Shown in pieces: positions 1,354 through 40,250 of a stretch of 64,000 nt of DNA. A model generated the notes under the pieces. The model saw nothing but the letters and a program-made list of their open reading frames with translations, was not told where the DNA came from and ran no database searches. The first letter of the stretch is position 1; each line of letters begins with the position of its first letter. This DNA comes from a virus (taxonomy: Duplodnaviria > Heunggongvirae > Uroviricota > Caudoviricetes): IMG/VR virus record IMGVR_UViG_3300003691_000001, positions 1-64,000 of that record; one strand, given 5' to 3'. The translations under genes were made by a program, and so were the position numbers.

Positions 1354-1794
1354 ATGCAAAAGGTTGAAATGTTCACAGATGGAGCCTGTAAGGGTGACAA
1401 ATCAGGTGGATGGGGTGTTCTCTTGGTGTGTAGAGGGGTGGAGAAGGAACTCTATGGTGGTAAAGTAGATACTACTAACAATGCAATGGAACTTACAGCG
1501 GTTCTTGAGGGTCTAAGAGCCCTTAAGAAACCCTGTGATGTGCACCTGGTCACAGATTCACTGTACGTCCTTAAAGGTGCTACTGAATGGTTCCCAAACT
1601 GGGTGAAGAACGGTTGGAAGACTTCAGGCGGAAAGCAGGTGAAGAATAAAGATTTGTGGATAGTGCTGGATGAAGAGGTAGGTAATCATGATATCACCTG
1701 GGATTGGGTACAAGGTCATACAGGCCATGAAGGTAATGAAAGGGCAGATGCCTTGGCTAATAAAGGTGTGGAGGAGATAAGATGCAAACAGTGA
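1354..1794 (+). CDS. rnhA: Ribonuclease HI
   Basis: Translation contains [25 protein letters not shown] and [15 protein letters not shown], the RNase H catalytic D-E-D-D core. The likely start is the ATG at 1354, inside the track ORF 1282..1794. Confidence 0.8.
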
Positions 1795-2197
1795 ATGTTT
1801 TAAAACAAGACCTTGAACGTGCACGGTACCTTATGAAGGTTGCTGCAGAGTTCATCATGGAACATGCAGAATATGAAACTAAGTTTTATGACGGAACTAC
1901 ATGCGATGGTGGTTGTCTAAATGATGAACTTATGGTGCAGTCAGAGATGATAGGTGTATATGATGAATAAGAAGTTAATATCTGAAAGGCTTACAGGAAA
2001 GATACAGGCTGTCGCATACCACTCATTCTTTGGAAAGCCTTCTATGGTTGTAGAGGTTGAATATATGCAAACATGGGAGAGGCAGCGCTCTTCACAAGAA
2101 GCACATCTACACGTCGAATGGGACACATGGGAGAAACGCGTATGGAAGAAGGCTACGTGTAGACAGGTGAAGCGTATGGATATAGGGTTTAAAGGAA

Positions 2198-2740
2198 ATG
2201 TCTAAACTTTGGATAGGTAGTGACCTTCATTGGGCACATAAAAACATACACAAGTTCAGGTGTAAGGATAAAGGCTTCTACAGAGACTTTGAAGATGAAA
2301 CAGAACACCGTGAATGGATTAAAGACTGGTGGAAAGCTCATATCCGTAAAAGGGATACAGTCATCTTACTAGGCGATGTAGCCTTTAAAGAGGAAGCATT
2401 ATTGGAGATAGGTACAATGCCTGGAAGGAAAGTACTTGTGAAGGGTAATCATGACCTTAAGAAATCGTGTTACTATGATAAAGTGTTTGATCAAGTACAT
2501 GGGTTATTGAGATATAAACATTGCTGGTTATCTCATGCACCGGTACATCCACAAGAGCTTAGAGAGAAGTTTAATATACACGGACATACACACCACTATG
2601 ATATACCAGATAGCCGGTACACGAATGTATGCGTTGAATCATTGATGAAAATCTTTGGAACCCCTTTCATTGGATGGACGGATCTGGTAGAGTACAGATC
2701 TACACTAGAGACTGAATGTAAGGAGTGCGAGTATGACTGA
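2198..2740 (+). CDS. Calcineurin-like metallophosphoesterase
   Basis: Motifs SDLH, LLGDV, GNHD and HGHTH. Its start overlaps the stop of the upstream ORF. Confidence 0.7.
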   Translation: MSKLWIGSDLHWAHKNIHKFRCKDKGFYRDFEDETEHREWIKDWWKAHIRKRDTVILLGDVAFKEEALLEIGTMPGRKVLVKGNHDLKKSCYYDKVFDQVHGLLRYKHCWLSHAPVHPQELREKFNIHGHTHHYDIPDSRYTNVCVESLMKIFGTPFIGWTDLVEYRSTLETECKECEYD

Positions 2741-3200
2741 TTACTTGTTTCATGCAAAAACAACAGCAAGAGATGGAAGTGTTTATGATACACAAGCTAC
2801 CTGGGCTACGGATAAGCGCCCAACCCTGGAGGACATCGAAGGTATTCAGGAAGAACTTAAGGAGAGGAATAACTCCATTAGCGTAGTTATACTAGGATTT
2901 ACTGAATTAGGACCTAAAGATGCAGAGTGAAAATAAGAAGGTTGTCATCATAACAGGAGGCGGTCATGGGATAATCGGTGCAGAGGTAGTACTTGCAATG
3001 CAGAGGTGTATGGACATGTACATTATCCCCGCAGAAGATATTGAAGAGGAAATGTTTGACTGCACATCTCTAGAAGCACAAATACTTGCAATGGAAACTG
3101 CAGCACTCACAATGAATGACCCTGAGCCTGTGCATTGTAAATCGTGGCATGGTAGACAGGGCAAATCCAAAGATAAGAAAGCAAGACGACAAGATAGGGG

Positions 3201-4220
3201 ATGGGATTGATGAGTAAATTAAAGATTACGATGGTTCGGATAAATACCGGTGCATATCTTACAGCAGGAAGCTATTCAAACGGATTCTCCAGTCACTATA
3301 GAATTAATAAGGGAGTGAATGGTGAAGGTGAGAAGACCCCACTATCCAAATGGGAGTACTTCCCAGGCCTTTTGGATGTTATTAGCATAGAAAGAAAGAC
3401 TGCAGATAAGCGTGAGTACACGCACTGGACCCTTGTGGACCCAGAGTTAATGTCAGAGAAGATTCCTGCAACTCTCGAAACTGAGCAGCTTCACTATGAT
3501 AGTGATTATTACTGGGGTGATATGAAGCACCTTGGATCGCTGTACGAGAAGGCGTATGATGTCACACCTGGTGGGTGGGTGGATGAGGAGTTTGAAGTTG
3601 TTCAACAGACTAGTTATGATGTGGATGTTGTTGATCCCCCAGTAGACTTTAAAGTCTACAAAATTGGTAATAACAGTTATATTGGGAAAGATGTTTATGG
3701 AGCGCATCCTAAGACAGACACTATTGAACAACTCTTGTACCCTGACATTATACAGCAGTACCGGCCTTGCCACCTAACATCGCAAGAGACATATAATATT
3801 ATACGGCACTGTATTAAGAATAATATTGATCCCACAAGGGCTGAAATCACTTCAGACTATGACTTCTGTTTCACAGTGAAGAAGAAAGTTGCATTAAAAC
3901 CTTTCACTATCACCACTGAAGTTAAGAAGAAGGGTGGCGGAAGCTATGTACGTCCAAGGTTTAGTAGTAAAACTACATCCCATAAGACAGTAGACCTCTT
4001 CGAGATGACCCATGGGGGGAAGAAGTACGGGGGATATACTGTAGTAAAAGGTTTTAAAGGCGAGAATCAAGAAGACCTTAAAAACAACATAGATGCATAC
4101 CTTACAGATCTTATGGTATACATCAACATGCCTATACACGAATGTGAAAACTGTAAAGGCCTTGGAAGCATTGTTGTGAAAGGTTATAAACTGAACGGGG
4201 GTGAAGGGCGTGAAGAATGA
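3201..4220 (+). CDS. Hypothetical protein, 339 aa
   Basis: Long ORF packed tightly with overlapping neighbours. No motif recognised. C-terminal CENC pair. Confidence 0.5.
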   Translation: MGLMSKLKITMVRINTGAYLTAGSYSNGFSSHYRINKGVNGEGEKTPLSKWEYFPGLLDVISIERKTADKREYTHWTLVDPELMSEKIPATLETEQLHYDSDYYWGDMKHLGSLYEKAYDVTPGGWVDEEFEVVQQTSYDVDVVDPPVDFKVYKIGNNSYIGKDVYGAHPKTDTIEQLLYPDIIQQYRPCHLTSQETYNIIRHCIKNNIDPTRAEITSDYDFCFTVKKKVALKPFTITTEVKKKGGGSYVRPRFSSKTTSHKTVDLFEMTHGGKKYGGYTVVKGFKGENQEDLKNNIDAYLTDLMVYINMPIHECENCKGLGSIVVKGYKLNGGEGREE

Positions 4221-4860
4221 TTTAGTAGTTATACTGCACGGATTAGAATCTAATGCACTTGTGATGAAAGGCTTTGAAAGATCCTACAAAAGAGCAGGAT
4301 TTGATGTGTACAATAGCACATATAGATGTGGTAGGCGTAGGTTTAAAACGGTTGCGGAGGATGTCCGTAAAGAGATTGACCATGTTACACGTGGGTATAA
4401 TAAAGTGCACTTTGTATGCCACAGCCTTGGCGGATTGATTGTAAGATACTACATTGGAAACCGTAGAAATAAAGAGTATTACATTGGAAAGATCATCACC
4501 ATGTCTACACCACACAGAGGTGCATTCTGGGCAGATGATGTGCCGTACGGGCTACAGATAGGTTACACACTCTTTGGGAAGAAGATGGTGAACAGCCTAC
4601 AAGACTATGGGATGATTAATAACTTACCGAAATTGTCACCGTACCAAACGCTGTGTATAACCACGGATAAGAACTTTACACTTGCTAACCCCCTTAGTTG
4701 GATTATCAACAAATACGTTACTGAACCCAATGATGGGTTTGTAACTAAAAGGGGTATGACTCTTGTAGGAAGCGATACTAAGAACTTCCATCTAGACCAC
4801 CTATATATGTGTTTGGATAAAGAGCTTATCAAATATACTACAAAGTACCTTCTGAAATGA
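4201..4860 (+). CDS. Alpha/beta-hydrolase, lipase/esterase-like (DUF676/PGAP1-like)
   Basis: N-terminal VVILHGL, nucleophile elbow CHSLGG, and downstream D/H candidates. Confidence 0.6.
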   Translation: MKGVKNDLVVILHGLESNALVMKGFERSYKRAGFDVYNSTYRCGRRRFKTVAEDVRKEIDHVTRGYNKVHFVCHSLGGLIVRYYIGNRRNKEYYIGKIITMSTPHRGAFWADDVPYGLQIGYTLFGKKMVNSLQDYGMINNLPKLSPYQTLCITTDKNFTLANPLSWIINKYVTEPNDGFVTKRGMTLVGSDTKNFHLDHLYMCLDKELIKYTTKYLLK

Positions 4861-5220
4861 AGGTGCCACGCAAGATCTTCACAGACTTTATAGAGGACTT
4901 AAAGGATAAGAGCCCTTCTATAGCCCTACGATACCAGGTGCACTTGAATCCTGTGAAGAAGATTGAGTACATCTGCTACAAGGATCATGTAGGGACTTTC
5001 TACATTGAATCAGAGGAATGTTATATATGGAGCTAATAGTTGAAAGGTCTAGTGAGGTAAGGATGTATACTTTCTGGGTACGTTTTAATGAAAGTCCTCC
5101 TATAAAGTTCGTCAGAAACTATGAAGAGCGGTGGATAATGTATACCATATCAGGAGCGAACTATGTTACTGATACTGATCTTATATTTAAGCTTGAGAAG
5201 TTCTACATAGAAGAGTACAC

Positions 5221-5310
5221 GTAGGAGCCCCTATAAGCCTCTGTGAGAGGTTTTAACGGGCAACCTATACCATTACTAGGGGTAGAGTCTACACCCCTCA
5301 CAGAGCAAGG
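5221..5310. repeat. Structured intergenic element, copy A. Shares conserved blocks with 47894..47986.
   Basis: Blocks gtaggagc, ctctgtgagagg..cccctcacagagcaa (long-range inverted repeat) and taggggtag(agtctac)acccc hairpin. Sits in a 94-nt gap between ORFs. Confidence 0.4.
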
Positions 5311-5318
5311 GGAGAAGG

Positions 5319-5570
5319 ATGAAGATATATGTATGCGATGCATGTGGTGCACAAAGTGAAAAGGGTATTAATAGGGTAGAGATTCCATGCCACCATTGGT
5401 CGTTTAATAATCAAACAGGATTCGTGGATAATGAGTTTAACCGTGTAAGCGGTAGACTTGATGTAGTAGATCTGTGTAACTCTTGTTACAACCTCGCATG
5501 GGCTCCATTGGCGAATACCATTAGAGAGATACGGTCACAAGTTCAGGGTGATAAAGATGCAGCCGTATGA
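5319..5570 (+). CDS. Small Cys-rich, zinc-ribbon-like protein
   Basis: CDAC...CHHW...CNSC cysteine pairs. Confidence 0.4.
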   Translation: MKIYVCDACGAQSEKGINRVEIPCHHWSFNNQTGFVDNEFNRVSGRLDVVDLCNSCYNLAWAPLANTIREIRSQVQGDKDAAV

Positions 5571-6009
5571 AGAAGTGTTTAGGGAGGTTATGTTCTACAT
5601 GGGATGCTCATGCTCCGGAGCTATAATTTTAATGGTGATAGGAATCATGTTCTCAGAGATCTTTAGGAAGGGTACCGTACAAAACCGTATACCCAGAGTA
5701 GTAGGTACCCATAGTAACACATGGAAGGATGGGTTTTGCTGGGAGTACGTGTGGAGTAGGCACCAATACCATGGAAAGAATGTAGATTATTTAGAGTGGC
5801 TAGATGACATGCTGGAAAGTAGTCATAATGCACCTCCTTTATGGCATCCAAGCTTTAAATGGGGGTTGACACACAACAAGAGTAATAAAACCTTACACCT
5901 GTCTTGGAGTAGAATCATCAGTGAGCCGGTATCGAATACAGAGACGAAGGAAACGACTTCGTACTGGAAAGAAATTAGAGACAAAGATTATAGGAGTCAT
6001 GTTCAATGA
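5548..6009 (+). CDS. Hypothetical membrane protein
   Basis: N-terminal hydrophobic helix GAIILMVIGIMFSEIF. Confidence 0.35.
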   Translation: MIKMQPYEEVFREVMFYMGCSCSGAIILMVIGIMFSEIFRKGTVQNRIPRVVGTHSNTWKDGFCWEYVWSRHQYHGKNVDYLEWLDDMLESSHNAPPLWHPSFKWGLTHNKSNKTLHLSWSRIISEPVSNTETKETTSYWKEIRDKDYRSHVQ

Positions 6010-6249
6010 GTGAAAAATTCATAGTTGAAAGTGTTGAGCAGTGCATATTTAGCAGAGTAGAGATAAAGGGCGAGACTTATGAGCGCCATGGGAAAGATAA
6101 ATGGCTACAGGATATGGACTGTTCACTAGAGTGTGTGCCTTTTCATATGGAGAAGCCTCTTGAAGAGGCTTATCAGAAGTATATACTAGAAGAGTTCAAT
6201 GATTATAGGACTCATGAACAAAATACATTCTTAGGTATCAAGGGGCTAT

Positions 6250-6720
6250 ATGAATAACACGTACCGAGTTATTGTAGCAGGAGGTAGGAAGTTCTGTTCT
6301 ATGCCAACCAACCCTAATAGTAAGAAGCGTAAGATGATGCGGTTCATGGGTGAAGAGATCCAAACAGCTCTTGCAAAAATCTCTGCAATCCTTACACCTG
6401 AGAGAGTGGCAGGTAGGAAGGTGGAGATTATATGCGGAATGGCCATGGGTGCAGACACTGTAGGCCGGTACTGGGCAGAGTTCAACCAGGACGTAACAAT
6501 CTCCTACTGGGAGCCAGATTGGTACCCTAAGGGACAATATTTCAAAGGTGCAGGCCACCTTCGTAACTGCGAGATGGGTGATCATGCTAGTGAAGAGGAT
6601 GGACTACTTATCGATTTTTATGATGGTGAAAGCCCTGGAAGTAAACAGATGATTAACTACGCTGCACAGATCGGCCTTGAAACAATTATTGTGCCATACG
6701 ATGCAGAGGATTATCCATGA
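6250..6720 (+). CDS. SLOG-superfamily protein (DUF2493/YspA-like)
   Basis: VIVAGGRKF and ICGMAMGADTVGRYWA, the GGR..GxxxGAD Rossmann signature of the SMF/DprA-LOG class. Confidence 0.55.
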   Translation: MNNTYRVIVAGGRKFCSMPTNPNSKKRKMMRFMGEEIQTALAKISAILTPERVAGRKVEIICGMAMGADTVGRYWAEFNQDVTISYWEPDWYPKGQYFKGAGHLRNCEMGDHASEEDGLLIDFYDGESPGSKQMINYAAQIGLETIIVPYDAEDYP

Positions 6721-6886
6721 AGTCTATACCATTAAGTGATGATTTTGTAGATGAGATCGTGACAGAACAGATGAAGTGGGTACACCTGGACGCAGAGGAT
6801 GTTAAGACCAGGGAAGCAGCACTGGTAGTACTTAGGTACTATATGCTTGAAGCGGATTTCCTTAAATGGCTGAAGGATAGAGAGTA

Positions 6887-9661
6887 ATGGCTGATGGACA
6901 TACAGGCTATAAAGGCAACAAGCCTAGCTATACAAGAAAGACTACTGCAAGATTTAAGGGGATACCTTTGCAAACCGTTGAAGATGTATTACAATTTAAA
7001 ATAGTTTCAATACCTGAACGAGGTATTACAACGAAGACAGCACAGCACTTTGGTGTTAGAACAGAAATGAGTAAAGCAGATGGACATACACCTGTTGCAC
7101 ATTACTTTCCATATACCGAAGATAGTAAGGTTGAAGGGAAAATTGAAAAGAAGGTTGTAGGGTATAAGAAGAGAGATCTTACAAAGCATAAGAAAGAGGA
7201 CGGCCACTTCACCACCATAGGGATTATGAAGCCTGAAGTAGTTGACCTGTTTGGTACAGACTGTGGAAACGTATCTGGAGGTAAGAAGGTGTGGACTACA
7301 GAAGGTGAGTATGATTCAATGATATGCTATCAAGCTATCAAGGCTGAACACTCATCAGGAAACCCCACTGTACTTTCCATAGGATTCGGTGCACCTAATG
7401 CTGTGAAGCATATTGGCCAGAAGCACTGTATGAAGTATCTGAACAAGTTTAAAGAGAAAGTCTTTGCATTCGATAATGACAAGGCTTCAATAGATGAACG
7501 TGCTAAAGGGATCATGCGCGGTAATGAAGCCACTGCAGCAGTGTATGGTCTTATTCCAGACTGTACCGTAGCTATGCTTCCAGACGGCAAAGACCCTTCA
7601 GAGATGTTTAATGATGACCCCTCCTCCTCTGAACTGTTCTGGGCACTGATGAAACCAATCAAATATAAGCCTGAAGGCTTCATCATGTATAGTGAAATAC
7701 GTGATAAAGCTGTTGAAATGCCTTACTTAGGTAAAGGCTGGCCATGGCCTACACTGTTCAAGAAGACTCTTGGACGCAGGCTTGGCGAAGGGTACTACAT
7801 CGGGGCAGGGGTTAAAGCGGGGAAGTGCTTCTTAAAAGGTACGGAAGTCCGTATGTTCGATGGAAGTGTCAAGAACGTTGAAGATGTTGTAACTGGTGAT
7901 GAAGTGATGGGATGGGACAGTACAAAACGTACTGTACTCTCTACTCACTCTGGCCGCGATGAGATGTACGAAGTAAAGCAAGCTCAAGGGAAGAACTATA
8001 TTGTTAACTCTCAGCACACTCTTGTACTGAGGGATTCGGGGAAGAAAGGTCAACTGGTTGAAAGATCTGTAGAGGATTTATATAATGCCTATGGAGACTC
8101 CAACCCTTTACGAGATTTGAAGGGATTTCATTCACCTATTGAATACCCTGAGAAACCTACTGGACTAGATCCTTACACCCTTGGCGTGTGGATGGGTGAT
8201 GGAAGTAGATGCGATAATAGACTTCATCTTGAAAAACAGGATAGTGAATACATCCTGCCGCGATGTTTACCGGTGTCACTGTTTGAAAGTAGCAAAGAGG
8301 GTATGCATGAAGGTGTTATAACAGGTCAGAAAGCGTACTTCTCTTCTTTCAAAGGAAGGAAGTACATTCCTGAGGATATCTTAACAAACTCCAGAAGAGT
8401 TCGTATGGAGGCACTTGCAGGATGGATAGATACAGATGGGCATAAAGATACTCGTAAAGGGTGTAGTTATGAGATTATAACTAAGGACTATTCGCTTGCT
8501 CTAACAGGACAAGAGTTGATGAGATCCCTTGGCTTAAGAGTATCGGTTCGACAGGTAGAGAAAGGTATTAAAGAAACTGGCTTCGTAGGGAAATACTATC
8601 GAATGCTCTTTTCAGGAGACCTGAGAGAAGTACCTATACAGGTGCCTCGTAAAAAATGTACAGAACCTCCTAAGAAAGACCCAACAGTTTCGGCAGTTAA
8701 GCTCTTTCACTTGAAAGAATGCCAATACTACGGATTTGAGACAGACGGAGATCACAAGTTTGTATTGAAGGATTATACTGTTGTACACAATAGTGAATTC
8801 GCTAACAAGCTCATCCAATACATCATCGAGAATGAAAAAGATGTAGACGGTAACGCGCAGAAGGTTGCAGTGTTCAAGTTTGAAGAGGAACCCGACTACA
8901 CTGTGAAGAAAGTTGCAGGGAAGTTCTACAAGAAAGACTTCACCAACCCTGAAAAGATTATCTTCATAGGTGATGAGGGAAAGGAAAAGGATATCTATGG
9001 CTATAACATTATCGATAAGTCAAGCTTCTTCACGCAAGAGGAGATGGAGTATGCTGTTGACACTGTAGGCCCTAACTTGGTAATGTACAATGCCTATGGC
9101 AGTTGTAGATGGGCAGAATTAAAAGGTGCTATCCGACACGCTGTACTGGTTGAACATATTGTAGATATTATTATAGATCCAATATCACGGTTGACATCTG
9201 GTATGACAGCCTCTGAAGCGAATCAAGAGCTTGAAATGTTTGCAGATGAAATTAGCAAGATGAGTAAAGACCTTGGGTTCACTTATTACTGCTTCTCTCA
9301 CCTTAAGCAGCCTACACATGGACCACTCCATGAATTTGGTGGTAAGGTGCAATCTGGACAGTTCACGGGTAGCCGTGCAATGACTCGATGCACCTACTAC
9401 ACTTTTGGTATAGAGCGTAATAAAGATCCTGAACTGGGTGAAAAGGTATTTAACACTAGTTACCTTGTAATACTTGATGACCGTAAGCATGGGAGGACTG
9501 CAAAGATTCCAATGTGGTATGACTCAGACACTGGAGATTACATTGAATCTAGCATGGAGTTCATTGAGGATGAAAGCTGTGCAACGTGGAAAGAGTGGAT
9601 AAACAGGCAAGCAGAGATTGCTGAATATGCCGATGTTCCTGGAGCAGATGAAGAATTTTAG
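6887..9661 (+). CDS. Primase-helicase (toprim plus DnaB-like helicase) containing an intein
   Basis: Toprim TEGEYDSMICYQAIK. Walker A GAGVKAGK | intein | SEFANK. Helicase motifs follow (LVEHIVDIIIDPIS, arginine-finger region). Confidence 0.8.
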   Translation: MADGHTGYKGNKPSYTRKTTARFKGIPLQTVEDVLQFKIVSIPERGITTKTAQHFGVRTEMSKADGHTPVAHYFPYTEDSKVEGKIEKKVVGYKKRDLTKHKKEDGHFTTIGIMKPEVVDLFGTDCGNVSGGKKVWTTEGEYDSMICYQAIKAEHSSGNPTVLSIGFGAPNAVKHIGQKHCMKYLNKFKEKVFAFDNDKASIDERAKGIMRGNEATAAVYGLIPDCTVAMLPDGKDPSEMFNDDPSSSELFWALMKPIKYKPEGFIMYSEIRDKAVEMPYLGKGWPWPTLFKKTLGRRLGEGYYIGAGVKAGKCFLKGTEVRMFDGSVKNVEDVVTGDEVMGWDSTKRTVLSTHSGRDEMYEVKQAQGKNYIVNSQHTLVLRDSGKKGQLVERSVEDLYNAYGDSNPLRDLKGFHSPIEYPEKPTGLDPYTLGVWMGDGSRCDNRLHLEKQDSEYILPRCLPVSLFESSKEGMHEGVITGQKAYFSSFKGRKYIPEDILTNSRRVRMEALAGWIDTDGHKDTRKGCSYEIITKDYSLALTGQELMRSLGLRVSVRQVEKGIKETGFVGKYYRMLFSGDLREVPIQVPRKKCTEPPKKDPTVSAVKLFHLKECQYYGFETDGDHKFVLKDYTVVHNSEFANKLIQYIIENEKDVDGNAQKVAVFKFEEEPDYTVKKVAGKFYKKDFTNPEKIIFIGDEGKEKDIYGYNIIDKSSFFTQEEMEYAVDTVGPNLVMYNAYGSCRWAELKGAIRHAVLVEHIVDIIIDPISRLTSGMTASEANQELEMFADEISKMSKDLGFTYYCFSHLKQPTHGPLHEFGGKVQSGQFTGSRAMTRCTYYTFGIERNKDPELGEKVFNTSYLVILDDRKHGRTAKIPMWYDSDTGDYIESSMEFIEDESCATWKEWINRQAEIAEYADVPGADEEF
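7826..8791 (+). mobile_element. Intein (322 aa) with a LAGLIDADG homing-endonuclease domain, inserted in the helicase P-loop
   Basis: N-terminal splice block CFLKGTEVRMFDG. LAGLIDADG motifs LGVWMGDGS and LAGWIDTDG. C-terminal TVVHN followed by +1 Ser. In frame with the host protein. Confidence 0.8.
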
Positions 9662-13936: not shown

Positions 13937-14875
13937 ATGTGGTTTAAGAATGCAAGGTTTTATCAATTTACAAAACCTTTTACAACAAGTACAGAAGAAC
14001 TGGAAGAGCTTCTAGAAGAGGATGCCTTCACACCCTGTGGTAAGAGTGACATGTCACAGTATGGTTGGGTATCCCCCTTACAAAGCCAAGGGGAAATGTT
14101 CACACACTGTCAAAGTGATTACATCATGATCTGTGCAAAGAAGCAGGAGAGATTACTACCTTCTTCTGTAATAAATCAAGAGGTGCAGCGCATTGTATCT
14201 GATATTGAAGCTCGTGATGGACGTAAGATGTTCCGTAAAGAACGTATGCAGATTAAAGATGAAGCTACTTTGAACCTTATCCCAAAGGCATTCACTAGAG
14301 ATCGTCTAACATATGCATATATCTCTTTACGAGACCATATGATTGTTGTAGACTCTGCAGCGCCTAAAGAGGCTGAAGAATTACTATCCAAGTTACGTGG
14401 TACACTAGGAACATTACCTGTGGTACTGCCTCGTACAAAGGGGATACCTTCTGATATCATGACAACATGGTTGCAATCTCAGGATGCAACTGATAATCTA
14501 CACATCGGAACAGACTGTAAGCTGACTAACCCTTCTATAGTAGGTAATACAATTACCTGTAAGCTACAAGAGCTTGAGTCAGATGAAGTGAACTCTCATG
14601 TATGTGCAGGGAAGGTTGTTGAACAGCTCAACCTTATATGGGATGGGAGTATTGATTGTAAGGTGTCAAGTGACTTAGTAATCAAGTCTGTGAAATTCTC
14701 AGATATGATTAAAGAGAAAGCTTATGATACAGATGCTGAAGACTATGCAATGCAGTTTGATCAAGATTTTGCAGTGATGACTTTAACCTTCTCTGCATTC
14801 TTTGAAGACTTGCTGAAAGCTTTTGGTGGGTATGCAAAGAAATATGAAGTAGAGGAAGAAGTATGTGCTGGCTAG
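13937..14875 (+). CDS. rdgC: Recombination-associated protein RdgC
   Basis: MWFKNARFY, AFTPCGKSDMSQYGWV, MICAKKQERLLPSSVI and LPVVLPRTKG parallel the E. coli RdgC N-terminus. Length 312 aa. Confidence 0.7.
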   Translation: MWFKNARFYQFTKPFTTSTEELEELLEEDAFTPCGKSDMSQYGWVSPLQSQGEMFTHCQSDYIMICAKKQERLLPSSVINQEVQRIVSDIEARDGRKMFRKERMQIKDEATLNLIPKAFTRDRLTYAYISLRDHMIVVDSAAPKEAEELLSKLRGTLGTLPVVLPRTKGIPSDIMTTWLQSQDATDNLHIGTDCKLTNPSIVGNTITCKLQELESDEVNSHVCAGKVVEQLNLIWDGSIDCKVSSDLVIKSVKFSDMIKEKAYDTDAEDYAMQFDQDFAVMTLTFSAFFEDLLKAFGGYAKKYEVEEEVCAG

Positions 14876-39167: not shown

Positions 39168-40250
39168 ATGTCAAGTAGATTTCAACAGCTTTTAGAAAAG
39201 GGTTTACTACCTACACCACCTAAGGTGTTAAAGAACAATGTATGCTATGAAGTCATTACAGGTAGTATGGCGTATGGTGTAGCCACTGACACCTCTGACA
39301 TGGATATTATAGGCTTTGCTATCCCGCCTAAAGAGACACTCTTCCCTCACCTAACGGGATACATAGACGGGTTCAGTACAAAGCAGAACAAGTTTGAACA
39401 GTATCAACAGCACCACATCATGGATAAGAGTGCACGGTCTGGAAAGGGTACAGAGTATGATATCACTATGTATAACATCGTGAAGTTCTTTAGGCTATGT
39501 ATGGAGAACAACCCTAATATGGTTGATGTACTCTTTGTACCTCGTAACTGCGTACTGCACAGTACCGGTGTAGGTGAGCTTGTACGTGAGAACCGTAAGC
39601 TGTTCTTGCATAAAGGTAGTTATCAAAAGTTCAAAGGGTACGCATACAGCCAGTTGAACAAGATGCAGAATAAGAACCTTAACACAGTGCTAAAGTTTGA
39701 ACGTGAATTCGATATATCCGATGAGGTTGCACATCAGTGCTATGCCTTTCCTAGGAATAAAGCTTTCATAGAGAATGTGTTCTGTGCTACACATCTACCC
39801 CTGCCTAATTATAGCGATGCTGAAAACTATGCCAACTTAATCCGTAAGTGCGGTACAATCAGTAAACGCCGTGACAGTATTAAAGAACACAAAATGGACG
39901 TAAAGTTCGCTTATCATATTGTACGCCTCCTTGGAGAGGTTGAACAGATTTTAACGTTACACGATTTAGACCTTCAACGTGATAAAGAGGTCTTAAAGTC
40001 TATACGTAGGGGTGAATGGTCTGTAGAGAAGATTACAGAGTACTTCGAGATGAAAGAAAAACATCTTGAAGAGCTTTACAACTCGAGTACACTCCGGTAT
40101 AGTCCTGACGAAGATGCAATAAGAGATCTCTTACTACAGTGCTTAGAACAGCACTACGGTAACCTGGAGAGCTGTGTTACTGTACTCGGTACAAGCGAGA
40201 AAGCGCTGCAAGAGATTGTAGCTACATTGAATAAATATAAGGTGATATAA
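39168..40250 (+). CDS. Pol-beta-superfamily nucleotidyltransferase
   Basis: GSMAYGVATDTSDMD (GS..G...SD.D) NTase signature near the N-terminus. About 250 aa of helical C-terminal domain. Confidence 0.55.
   Translation: MSSRFQQLLEKGLLPTPPKVLKNNVCYEVITGSMAYGVATDTSDMDIIGFAIPPKETLFPHLTGYIDGFSTKQNKFEQYQQHHIMDKSARSGKGTEYDITMYNIVKFFRLCMENNPNMVDVLFVPRNCVLHSTGVGELVRENRKLFLHKGSYQKFKGYAYSQLNKMQNKNLNTVLKFEREFDISDEVAHQCYAFPRNKAFIENVFCATHLPLPNYSDAENYANLIRKCGTISKRRDSIKEHKMDVKFAYHIVRLLGEVEQILTLHDLDLQRDKEVLKSIRRGEWSVEKITEYFEMKEKHLEELYNSSTLRYSPDEDAIRDLLLQCLEQHYGNLESCVTVLGTSEKALQEIVATLNKYKVI

Follow-up and report, generated by a model that had tools for sequence, protein, structure and literature searches.

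Inteins lodged in the P-loops of replication ATPases are textbook cases. PI-SceI, the yeast VMA1 intein (PDB 1vde, 1ef0, 1lws), interrupts the P-loop of the V-ATPase A subunit, has Cys as its +1 residue and carries its splicing block B in the N-x-x-H form (NATH). P-loop insertions have further been documented in DnaB (site b), MCM and RFC, and T7 gp4 belongs to the same superfamily 4 (SF4) as DnaB (Novikova et al., PMC4760082); the position between Lys and Thr has been called the "classic" P-loop intein insertion (PMC5050341). In the DNA analyzed here (the window, 64,000 nucleotides in full, positions 1 to 64,000 of the IMG/VR virus record IMGVR_UViG_3300003691_000001, Caudoviricetes), the segment 7826–8791 interrupts the P-loop of a T7 gp4-like primase-helicase, and we hold with high confidence that it is a genuine class 1 intein, of the PI-SceI (Hom_end_hint) type, which encloses a LAGLIDADG endonuclease with two motifs, very likely splices and probably homes. 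Elements of this type, this insertion site and this intein family were all known before, and the window intein adds a further example; a description of an intein in the gp4-like phage primase-helicase lineage was not found in the literature, which is no proof that none exists.

Precursor gene, splice junctions and splicing residues

The precursor gene (6887–9661, stop codon included; like all window features described here, on the plus strand) is a single uninterrupted open reading frame (ORF) encoding 924 amino acids (aa), intein included. With the 322 aa of the insert taken out, the remaining 602-aa extein matches PHROG 239, "DNA primase/helicase" (E-value 6.8e-120), and T7 gp4 structures (6n7i, 9e-13), with both halves aligned (extein aa 100–319 and 439–584) and its GAGVKAGKS placed on the T7 Walker A motif GSGMGKS. 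Matches of the extein to the Pfam families Toprim_2, AAA_25 and DnaB_C all stay below threshold (DnaB_C, 0.062). Judged by these alignments, the host protein is a T7 gp4-like SF4 primase-helicase with an N-terminal Toprim primase and a C-terminal RecA-like helicase, the latter with a Walker A motif of the form GxxxxGK[ST]. The N-extein (aa 1–313, 6887–7825) comprises the Toprim primase domain, a linker and Walker A up to its invariant Lys (GAGVKAGK), and the C-extein (aa 636–924, 8792–9661) the rest of the helicase domain, as delimited by a multiple alignment of eleven primase-helicase orthologues (A1), the T7 gp4 alignment and the weak Pfam matches (Toprim_2 in the former, AAA_25 and DnaB_C in the latter).

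The insert is exactly 966 nt or 322 codons long, in frame from a Cys codon (Cys1, 7826–7828) to an Asn codon (Asn322, 8789–8791), and splits Walker A as GAGVKAGK/S, between Lys313 and the next Ser. Translation across the junctions reads ...GYYIGAGVKAGK / CFLKGTEVRM ... VLKDYTVVHN / SEFANKLIQYII, and the fused junction without the intein TACATCGGGGCAGGGGTTAAAGCGGGGAAG/AGTGAATTCGCTAACAAGCTCATCCAATAC. The residues of class 1 splicing are all present, namely Cys1, Asn61-x-x-His64, His321-Asn322 and Ser+1. Block A (7826–7864, CFLKGTEVRMFDG), with Cys1 as the predicted nucleophile, aligns residue for residue with CFAKGTNVLMADG of PI-SceI; block B (8006–8017), read from the sequence as Asn61-Ser-Gln-His64, is of the same N-x-x-H variant as in PI-SceI, and its Asn and His are kept in nine of nine related inteins. 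Blocks F and G (8723–8791, QYYGFETDGDHKFVLKDYTVVHN) end in His321-Asn322, and the stretch YYGFETDGDHKFVLKDYTVVHN was aligned with YYGITLSDDSDHQFLLANQVVVHN of PI-SceI by phmmer against PDB chains. The intein thus terminates as ...DGDHKFVLKDYTVVHN/S, that is, His-Asn followed by the +1 Ser (AGT, 8792–8794), the predicted C-extein nucleophile, which would be the Ser of GxxxxGKS once splicing has taken place; N322 is nearly invariant in an alignment of 15 inteins (A2) and this Ser (S636) is invariant in A1.

A preliminary description, made from the letters of the DNA alone, had arrived at the same picture. Its intein limits, 7826–8791, are correct to the base, and its host reading, GAGVKAGK followed by CFLKGTEV...TVVHN and S, is borne out by the translation of 6887–9661; the N-terminal Cys block, the motifs LGVWMGDGS and LAGWIDTDG (at 8180–8206 and 8414–8440) and the C-terminal HN with its +1 Ser were all found where they should be, and the primase-helicase assignment agrees with the PHROG and T7 gp4 matches.

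The whole gene has no megablast match in 50,697 phage records, so that searches at the protein level were needed; Vibrio phage 11895-B1 and large myoviruses of the Vequintavirinae and of the phiTE/CR3 type come closest among cultured phages, with proteins about 50% identical. Seven of the eleven orthologues in A1 are without the segment, the gap falling exactly after GK and before S. The intein-less orthologues have GAGVKxGKS as a contiguous motif, and removal of 7826–8791 gives GAGVKAGKS in a 602-aa protein, as the preliminary description had anticipated for precise excision. The spliced extein aligns with intein-less orthologues in a single piece (Vibrio phage 11895-B1, 100% coverage); 901 phage records cover at least 80% of it, and GxGVKxGK-S is contiguous in 31 IMG/VR orthologues, those in which the motif could be located. 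As orthologues lack the segment precisely at GK/S, it is not a native domain. That it might nevertheless be a native accessory domain, or a Hint-like insertion of the bacterial intein-like (BIL) type that does not splice, is exceedingly improbable: beside its absence from orthologues at exactly this point, every residue needed for class 1 splicing is in place, HN and Ser+1 among them, and the catalytic motif that it interrupts is invariant and could not work with 322 aa retained in it. The accessory-domain reading is refuted by the orthologue comparison, and no support for it was found.

The route from this gene to a working helicase can be drawn from established class 1 intein chemistry. With its P-loop interrupted, the 924-aa translation product could not yet bind ATP. 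An N-S acyl shift at Cys1 would follow, the resulting thioester would be attacked by Ser+1, Asn322 would cyclize with the help of His321, and an O-N shift would leave a 602-aa helicase with an intact GAGVKAGKS and a free 322-aa intein. Splicing of the window intein, which we infer from its sequence, is very likely.

Fold, relatives and endonuclease domain

In profile searches, two Pfam families exceed their cut-offs with the insert: Hom_end_hint, at 75.6 bits (cut-off 32.1, E 7.6e-21), and Hom_end, at 30.8 bits (cut-off 21.1, E 3.3e-7). Slightly under their thresholds are LAGLIDADG_3 and Hint, and NCBIfam returned sub-threshold matches only. Among all PDB chains, the best relative found by phmmer is PI-SceI (7.5e-18), in an alignment that takes in blocks A, F and G, both LAGLIDADG motifs and Lys179. 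These Pfam and PI-SceI scores are, as sequence matches go, far beyond chance. With A2 as input, AlphaFold2 produced a model of the intein without a disordered segment (mean predicted local distance difference test score, pLDDT, 93.6; predicted template modeling score, pTM, 0.90). In a Foldseek search of the PDB with this model, the top 11 matches are all PI-SceI chains (E 1.6e-25 to 4.3e-20, query-normalized template modeling score, TMq, 0.75–0.81), the best being 1ef0_A (E 1.6e-25, TMq 0.81); the archaeal TliVMA and PhoVMA inteins and PI-PfuI follow. Mini-inteins and Hedgehog Hint domains (Prp8, gp41-1, DnaB, Hedgehog) match only the splicing half of the model. Together with the Hom_end_hint score, these matches of the model point to a predicted Hint fold in the insert. 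Because the Pfam, sequence and fold matches coincide, the insert is read as a two-domain intein, Hint plus nested double-motif LAGLIDADG endonuclease. Two of the checks named in the preliminary description favor what it had claimed, an intein with a LAGLIDADG endonuclease: the profile search gave Hom_end_hint and Hom_end over their cut-offs, with a model that superposes on PI-SceI in both domains, and the comparison with intein-less orthologues found the segment missing precisely at GK/S.

The endonuclease domain occupies approximately aa 106–275 (8141–8650), as delimited by the secondary structure of the model, the Pfam Hom_end match (aa 181–252) and the PI-SceI fold match. Its first LAGLIDADG motif, LGVWMGDGS (aa 119–127, 8180–8206), with Asp125, lies on LGLWIGDGL of PI-SceI, the second, LAGWIDTDG (aa 197–205, 8414–8440), with Asp204, on LAGLIDSDG; D125, G126, D204 and G205 are nearly invariant in A2. 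Between the motifs, Lys179 (8360–8362, in GRKYIP) aligns with PI-SceI residue 301 (GVKNIP), a Lys that is catalytic in PI-SceI; in A2, I181 does not vary and P182 hardly does. Both Asp are kept in nine of nine aligned inteins and Lys179 in eight of nine, the ninth, L004, having Glu. Across the aligned inteins, conservation in the endonuclease domain is similar to that in the Hint domain.

The window intein thus shares with PI-SceI the Hint domain with a nested double-motif endonuclease, an N terminus of the form CFxKGT, the C terminus VVHN, both LAGLIDADG Asp and the Lys at 301. It differs in size (322 versus 454 aa, structure-based identity about 22%), lacking most of the region between block B and the first LAGLIDADG motif and having a shorter first endonuclease half, and in its +1 residue, Ser, and its host, a phage helicase instead of a eukaryotic ATPase. 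The sites are not identical either, since PI-SceI is inserted three residues upstream in the P-loop (G/CGK, not GK/S). 

A protein search with the intein alone found only 12 relatives, owing to the word index of the search, and tblastn against phage records was more informative: related inteins, at about 35% identity over the full length, are present in 621 records, and for several of the phage proteins concerned the existing annotation reads "intein containing helicase precursor". Four of these inteins were examined. In Salmonella Jerseyvirus S10, Klebsiella JD001 and Bacteroides BS162P1 the intein sits between GK and T of Walker A, in Vibrio phage 1.101.O between GK and S; like these four, the mycobacteriophage intein TerL1-a is inserted between Lys and Ser/Thr of GxxxxGK[ST] (PMC5050341). 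The four phage inteins are longer than the one in the window (341–353 aa) and have a longer first endonuclease half. Their hosts differ as well, those of S10, JD001 and BS162P1 having no significant similarity to the window extein and that of 1.101.O being a remote primase-helicase relative (26% identity over the primase domain). The 1.101.O protein (L006, coding sequence (CDS) 1370–4429) is annotated as "hedgehog/hint domain protein" and not as the remote primase-helicase homolog it is; its intein appears to start with Ser (GK/SFCAGTP...), not Cys. The DnaB inteins at insertion point b (PMC4760082) have in common with the window intein the P-loop site and a host in the superfamily of T7 gp4, yet DnaB and the gp4-like primase-helicases are distant paralogs, and DnaB mini-inteins match the model over its Hint part only (TMq about 0.22–0.26); signs that the window intein descends from a DnaB intein did not turn up, nor were they looked for.

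Distribution and mobility

Homologous inteins of 321–322 aa occupy the same site in four more orthologues (P0002/L003, P0003/L005, P0005/L004 and L010). The five intein-bearing alleles are scattered on an extein tree (neighbor-joining, 70 exteins, no support values), each beside intein-less close relatives; the sister allele of the window, L002, is itself intein-less. One pair of alleles differs by the element alone: the occupied L003 (607–3303) and the empty L053 (3001–4734) have exteins that are 95.9% identical in DNA, a flanking genome that is 94–97% identical, and a precise 963-bp intein at GK/S as their difference, which shows that the family has seen a recent gain or a precise loss. The similarities of inteins and exteins are incongruent, as far as identities tell: the L004 intein is the most divergent (38–40% to the others), with an extein at 49–60%, and the L010 intein is about 52% identical to those of the window, L003 and L005, with the most distant extein (44–50%).

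Homing, if it occurs, would follow the usual course: in co-infected cells, the P-loop-coding DNA of an allele without the intein is probably cleaved, by the intein once free or by the precursor, and repair from the intein-bearing copy would spread the element. The patchy distribution, the intein/extein incongruence and the occupied/empty pair lend this indirect support in the family. The mobility of the element and the essentiality of the helicase, both of which the preliminary description had put forward, we likewise infer, and they are to be read as such.

Several observations weigh against current mobility of the window copy. The five primase-helicase inteins share a deletion of 20–25 residues in the first endonuclease half relative to their cousins in other helicases, and there the model has three strands, not four; the predicted endonuclease fold matches PI-SceI well overall and Hom_end above its cut-off, yet the shortened half could weaken DNA binding. 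The nearest intein relative is only 60% identical, and the intein does not differ in G+C content (0.419) from the exteins or the window; on both counts, the window copy is an old resident of its lineage and no recent arrival. Separately, an exact search with the first 45 nt of the intein had no match in GTDB genome contigs or IMG/VR, an intein-family hidden Markov model found no second copy in the six-frame translation of the window, and no Hint domain was found in ten other large ORFs of the window.

These features would suit an intein that is competent in splicing and has an inactive endonuclease, an immobile, vertically inherited passenger kept because its imprecise loss destroys the P-loop. 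We give this a substantial chance, if clearly the smaller one. It accounts for the lack of a close copy elsewhere, the host-like composition and the short first LAGLIDADG half of the subgroup, and the identities among the inteins of the window, L003 and L005 (59–62%) are near those of the corresponding exteins (55–57%), as expected for long co-residence. Decaying endonucleases, on the other hand, usually gather deletions and lose catalytic residues. In the five divergent primase-helicase inteins both metal-binding Asp are kept throughout, the Lys aligned with PI-SceI 301 is kept in four (Glu in L004), and the endonuclease domain is conserved no less than the Hint domain; the patchy distribution on the extein tree and the 96%-identical pair of alleles differing only by the intein also speak against a passenger of this kind. 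Present-day endonuclease activity of the window copy is, from its sequence, little better than an even bet.

It is also conceivable, though quite unlikely, that the intein has been recruited as a post-translational switch, in which conditional protein splicing, responding to redox state, temperature or a host cue, times phage replication. The insertion is at the catalytic P-loop, and therefore the precursor must stay inactive until spliced; Cys1 and several internal Cys visible in the intein sequence would permit redox control, and other inteins, in helicases and recombinases, are documented as splicing conditionally (PMC6195587, PMC5790916, PMC8557812). No feature of the sequence points specifically to regulation, however, and the intein is missing from most orthologues, a patchy pattern that suits a selfish element better than a recruited regulator.

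Other insertions in the gene family and genomic setting

That the helicase P-loop is a known hotspot for inteins, DnaB included, as had been proposed for this locus from the start, agrees with the literature (PMC4760082, PMC5050341). Further orthologues are interrupted close by. L015 has a 716-bp insert (3847–4562) between the Gly and Lys codons of GKS, 3 nt upstream of the intein site, within which lie an HNH-type ORF and, on the coding strand, a group I intron match that stays below threshold (32.8 bits, E 1.9e-6); L012, 93% identical, is the corresponding empty allele. L017 (3810–4688) and L052 (3838–5150) are interrupted between GAG and VKMGKS, 15 nt upstream of the intein site, the L017 insert with a sub-threshold Rfam group I match (35.4 bits, E 3.7e-7, coding strand). 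These P-loop inserts are 0.7–1.3 kb long and have HNH-type ORFs, that of L052 also a LAGLIDADG-type ORF. Rfam at its gathering threshold detects no intron in the interrupted orthologues, the group I matches appearing only in a permissive search and below threshold; the inserts of L015, L017 and L052 probably represent homing introns of group I, with the same hotspot as the intein.

A cultured phage shows the same arrangement. Escherichia phage A5-4 (L054, OP744025.1, Vequintavirinae) is interrupted (1141–1886) at the same point as L017; its primase-helicase is annotated as two CDS, one ending in ...GAGKH and a stop, the other starting MGKSELL and preceded in frame by VK, with an annotated HNH homing endonuclease between them and a weak group I intron match (24.6 bits, E 6e-4). 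The gene is, by these signs, probably mis-annotated as split; phages A7_1 and UPEC06 likewise match the extein in two pieces.

Elsewhere in the gene, a distant orthologue, L047, has about 310 aa inserted in frame in its Toprim motif (~3376–4302, ...VVITEGE/CFHPDTEV...SISVSGN/CDAGSF), apparently a second intein site, unrelated to the first, in the primase domain. In L021, 715 bp (4453–5166) are inserted near the C terminus, behind ...FTGSRSMMR (window aa 834/835); an HNH-type ORF (4574–5005) lies there in another frame, and the insert, within the helicase domain, is probably an intron or a free-standing endonuclease. L003, the occupied member of the pair above, has in its family A DNA polymerase gene (ORF 4206–6845, with N bases near the ORF start) an in-frame insert of about 1 kb (~5158–6167) that is absent from L053 and has intein-like boundaries (...SVKYA/CLPMHTKV...GITGN/CTYGA). 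Taken as sequence comparisons, these cases support the view of the primase-helicase gene, and of its P-loop codons especially, as a hotspot for homing elements, which is a familiar pattern.

The Ser+1 codon is AGY in five of five intein-bearing alleles and in the intron-bearing L015, versus 10 of 31 intein-less ones (the rest TCN), although the samples are not independent. As an intein-borne signature, this codon was largely dropped: besides the 10 empty alleles, L053, the empty twin of L003, also has AGY, and what is left is at most a weak bias. Between L015 and L012, five of the nine nt directly 3′ of the insertion differ, against a background of 93% identity; together with the AGY codon, this may be a signature of co-conversion or of target preference.

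In the window, the neighbors of the primase-helicase gene are those of a family A DNA polymerase, RdgC, a ligase and a 5′-3′ exonuclease; the RdgC homolog (13937–14875, plus strand, E 9.8e-101) is full-length and lies within this replication module. About 3 kb upstream of the module, a 339-aa ORF (3201–4220, plus strand) matches the Pfam family Gad1 (Gabija anti-defence 1, E 5.8e-62), a phage counter-defence gene, and the protein encoded at 39168–40250 (plus strand) belongs to the RlaP family (RNA repair pathway, DNA polymerase beta family; 2.4e-17). The exact primase-helicase precursor is also on record in an NCBI whole-genome shotgun (WGS) entry with the prefix JQIA01, where its contig measures 152 kb.

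Current understanding is left unchanged by this intein. For annotation it means that the gene encodes an intein-containing primase-helicase precursor and that 322 of its aa are not a helicase domain. As a compact intein with a complete-looking endonuclease, a predicted Lys/Ser junction and divergent homologs, it may interest those who collect inteins for protein engineering, and it may suit the study of how P-loop extein context affects splicing.

A more speculative idea, to which we assign a low probability, is that the P-loop-coding DNA is a shared battleground on which unrelated mobile elements, the intein at K/S and the probable group I introns between G and K and between GAG and VK, contend within 15 nt. 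If these elements recognize overlapping targets, each would shield its host allele from the others; the window intein would then serve in part as a "vaccine" that keeps introns out of the target site, or the introns as one against the intein, and flanking synonymous changes such as the AGY Ser codon would be scars of co-conversion or immunity. The L003/L053 pair, together with the probable introns nearby in cultured E. coli phages such as A5-4, makes a tractable system for the competition of homing elements at a single site.

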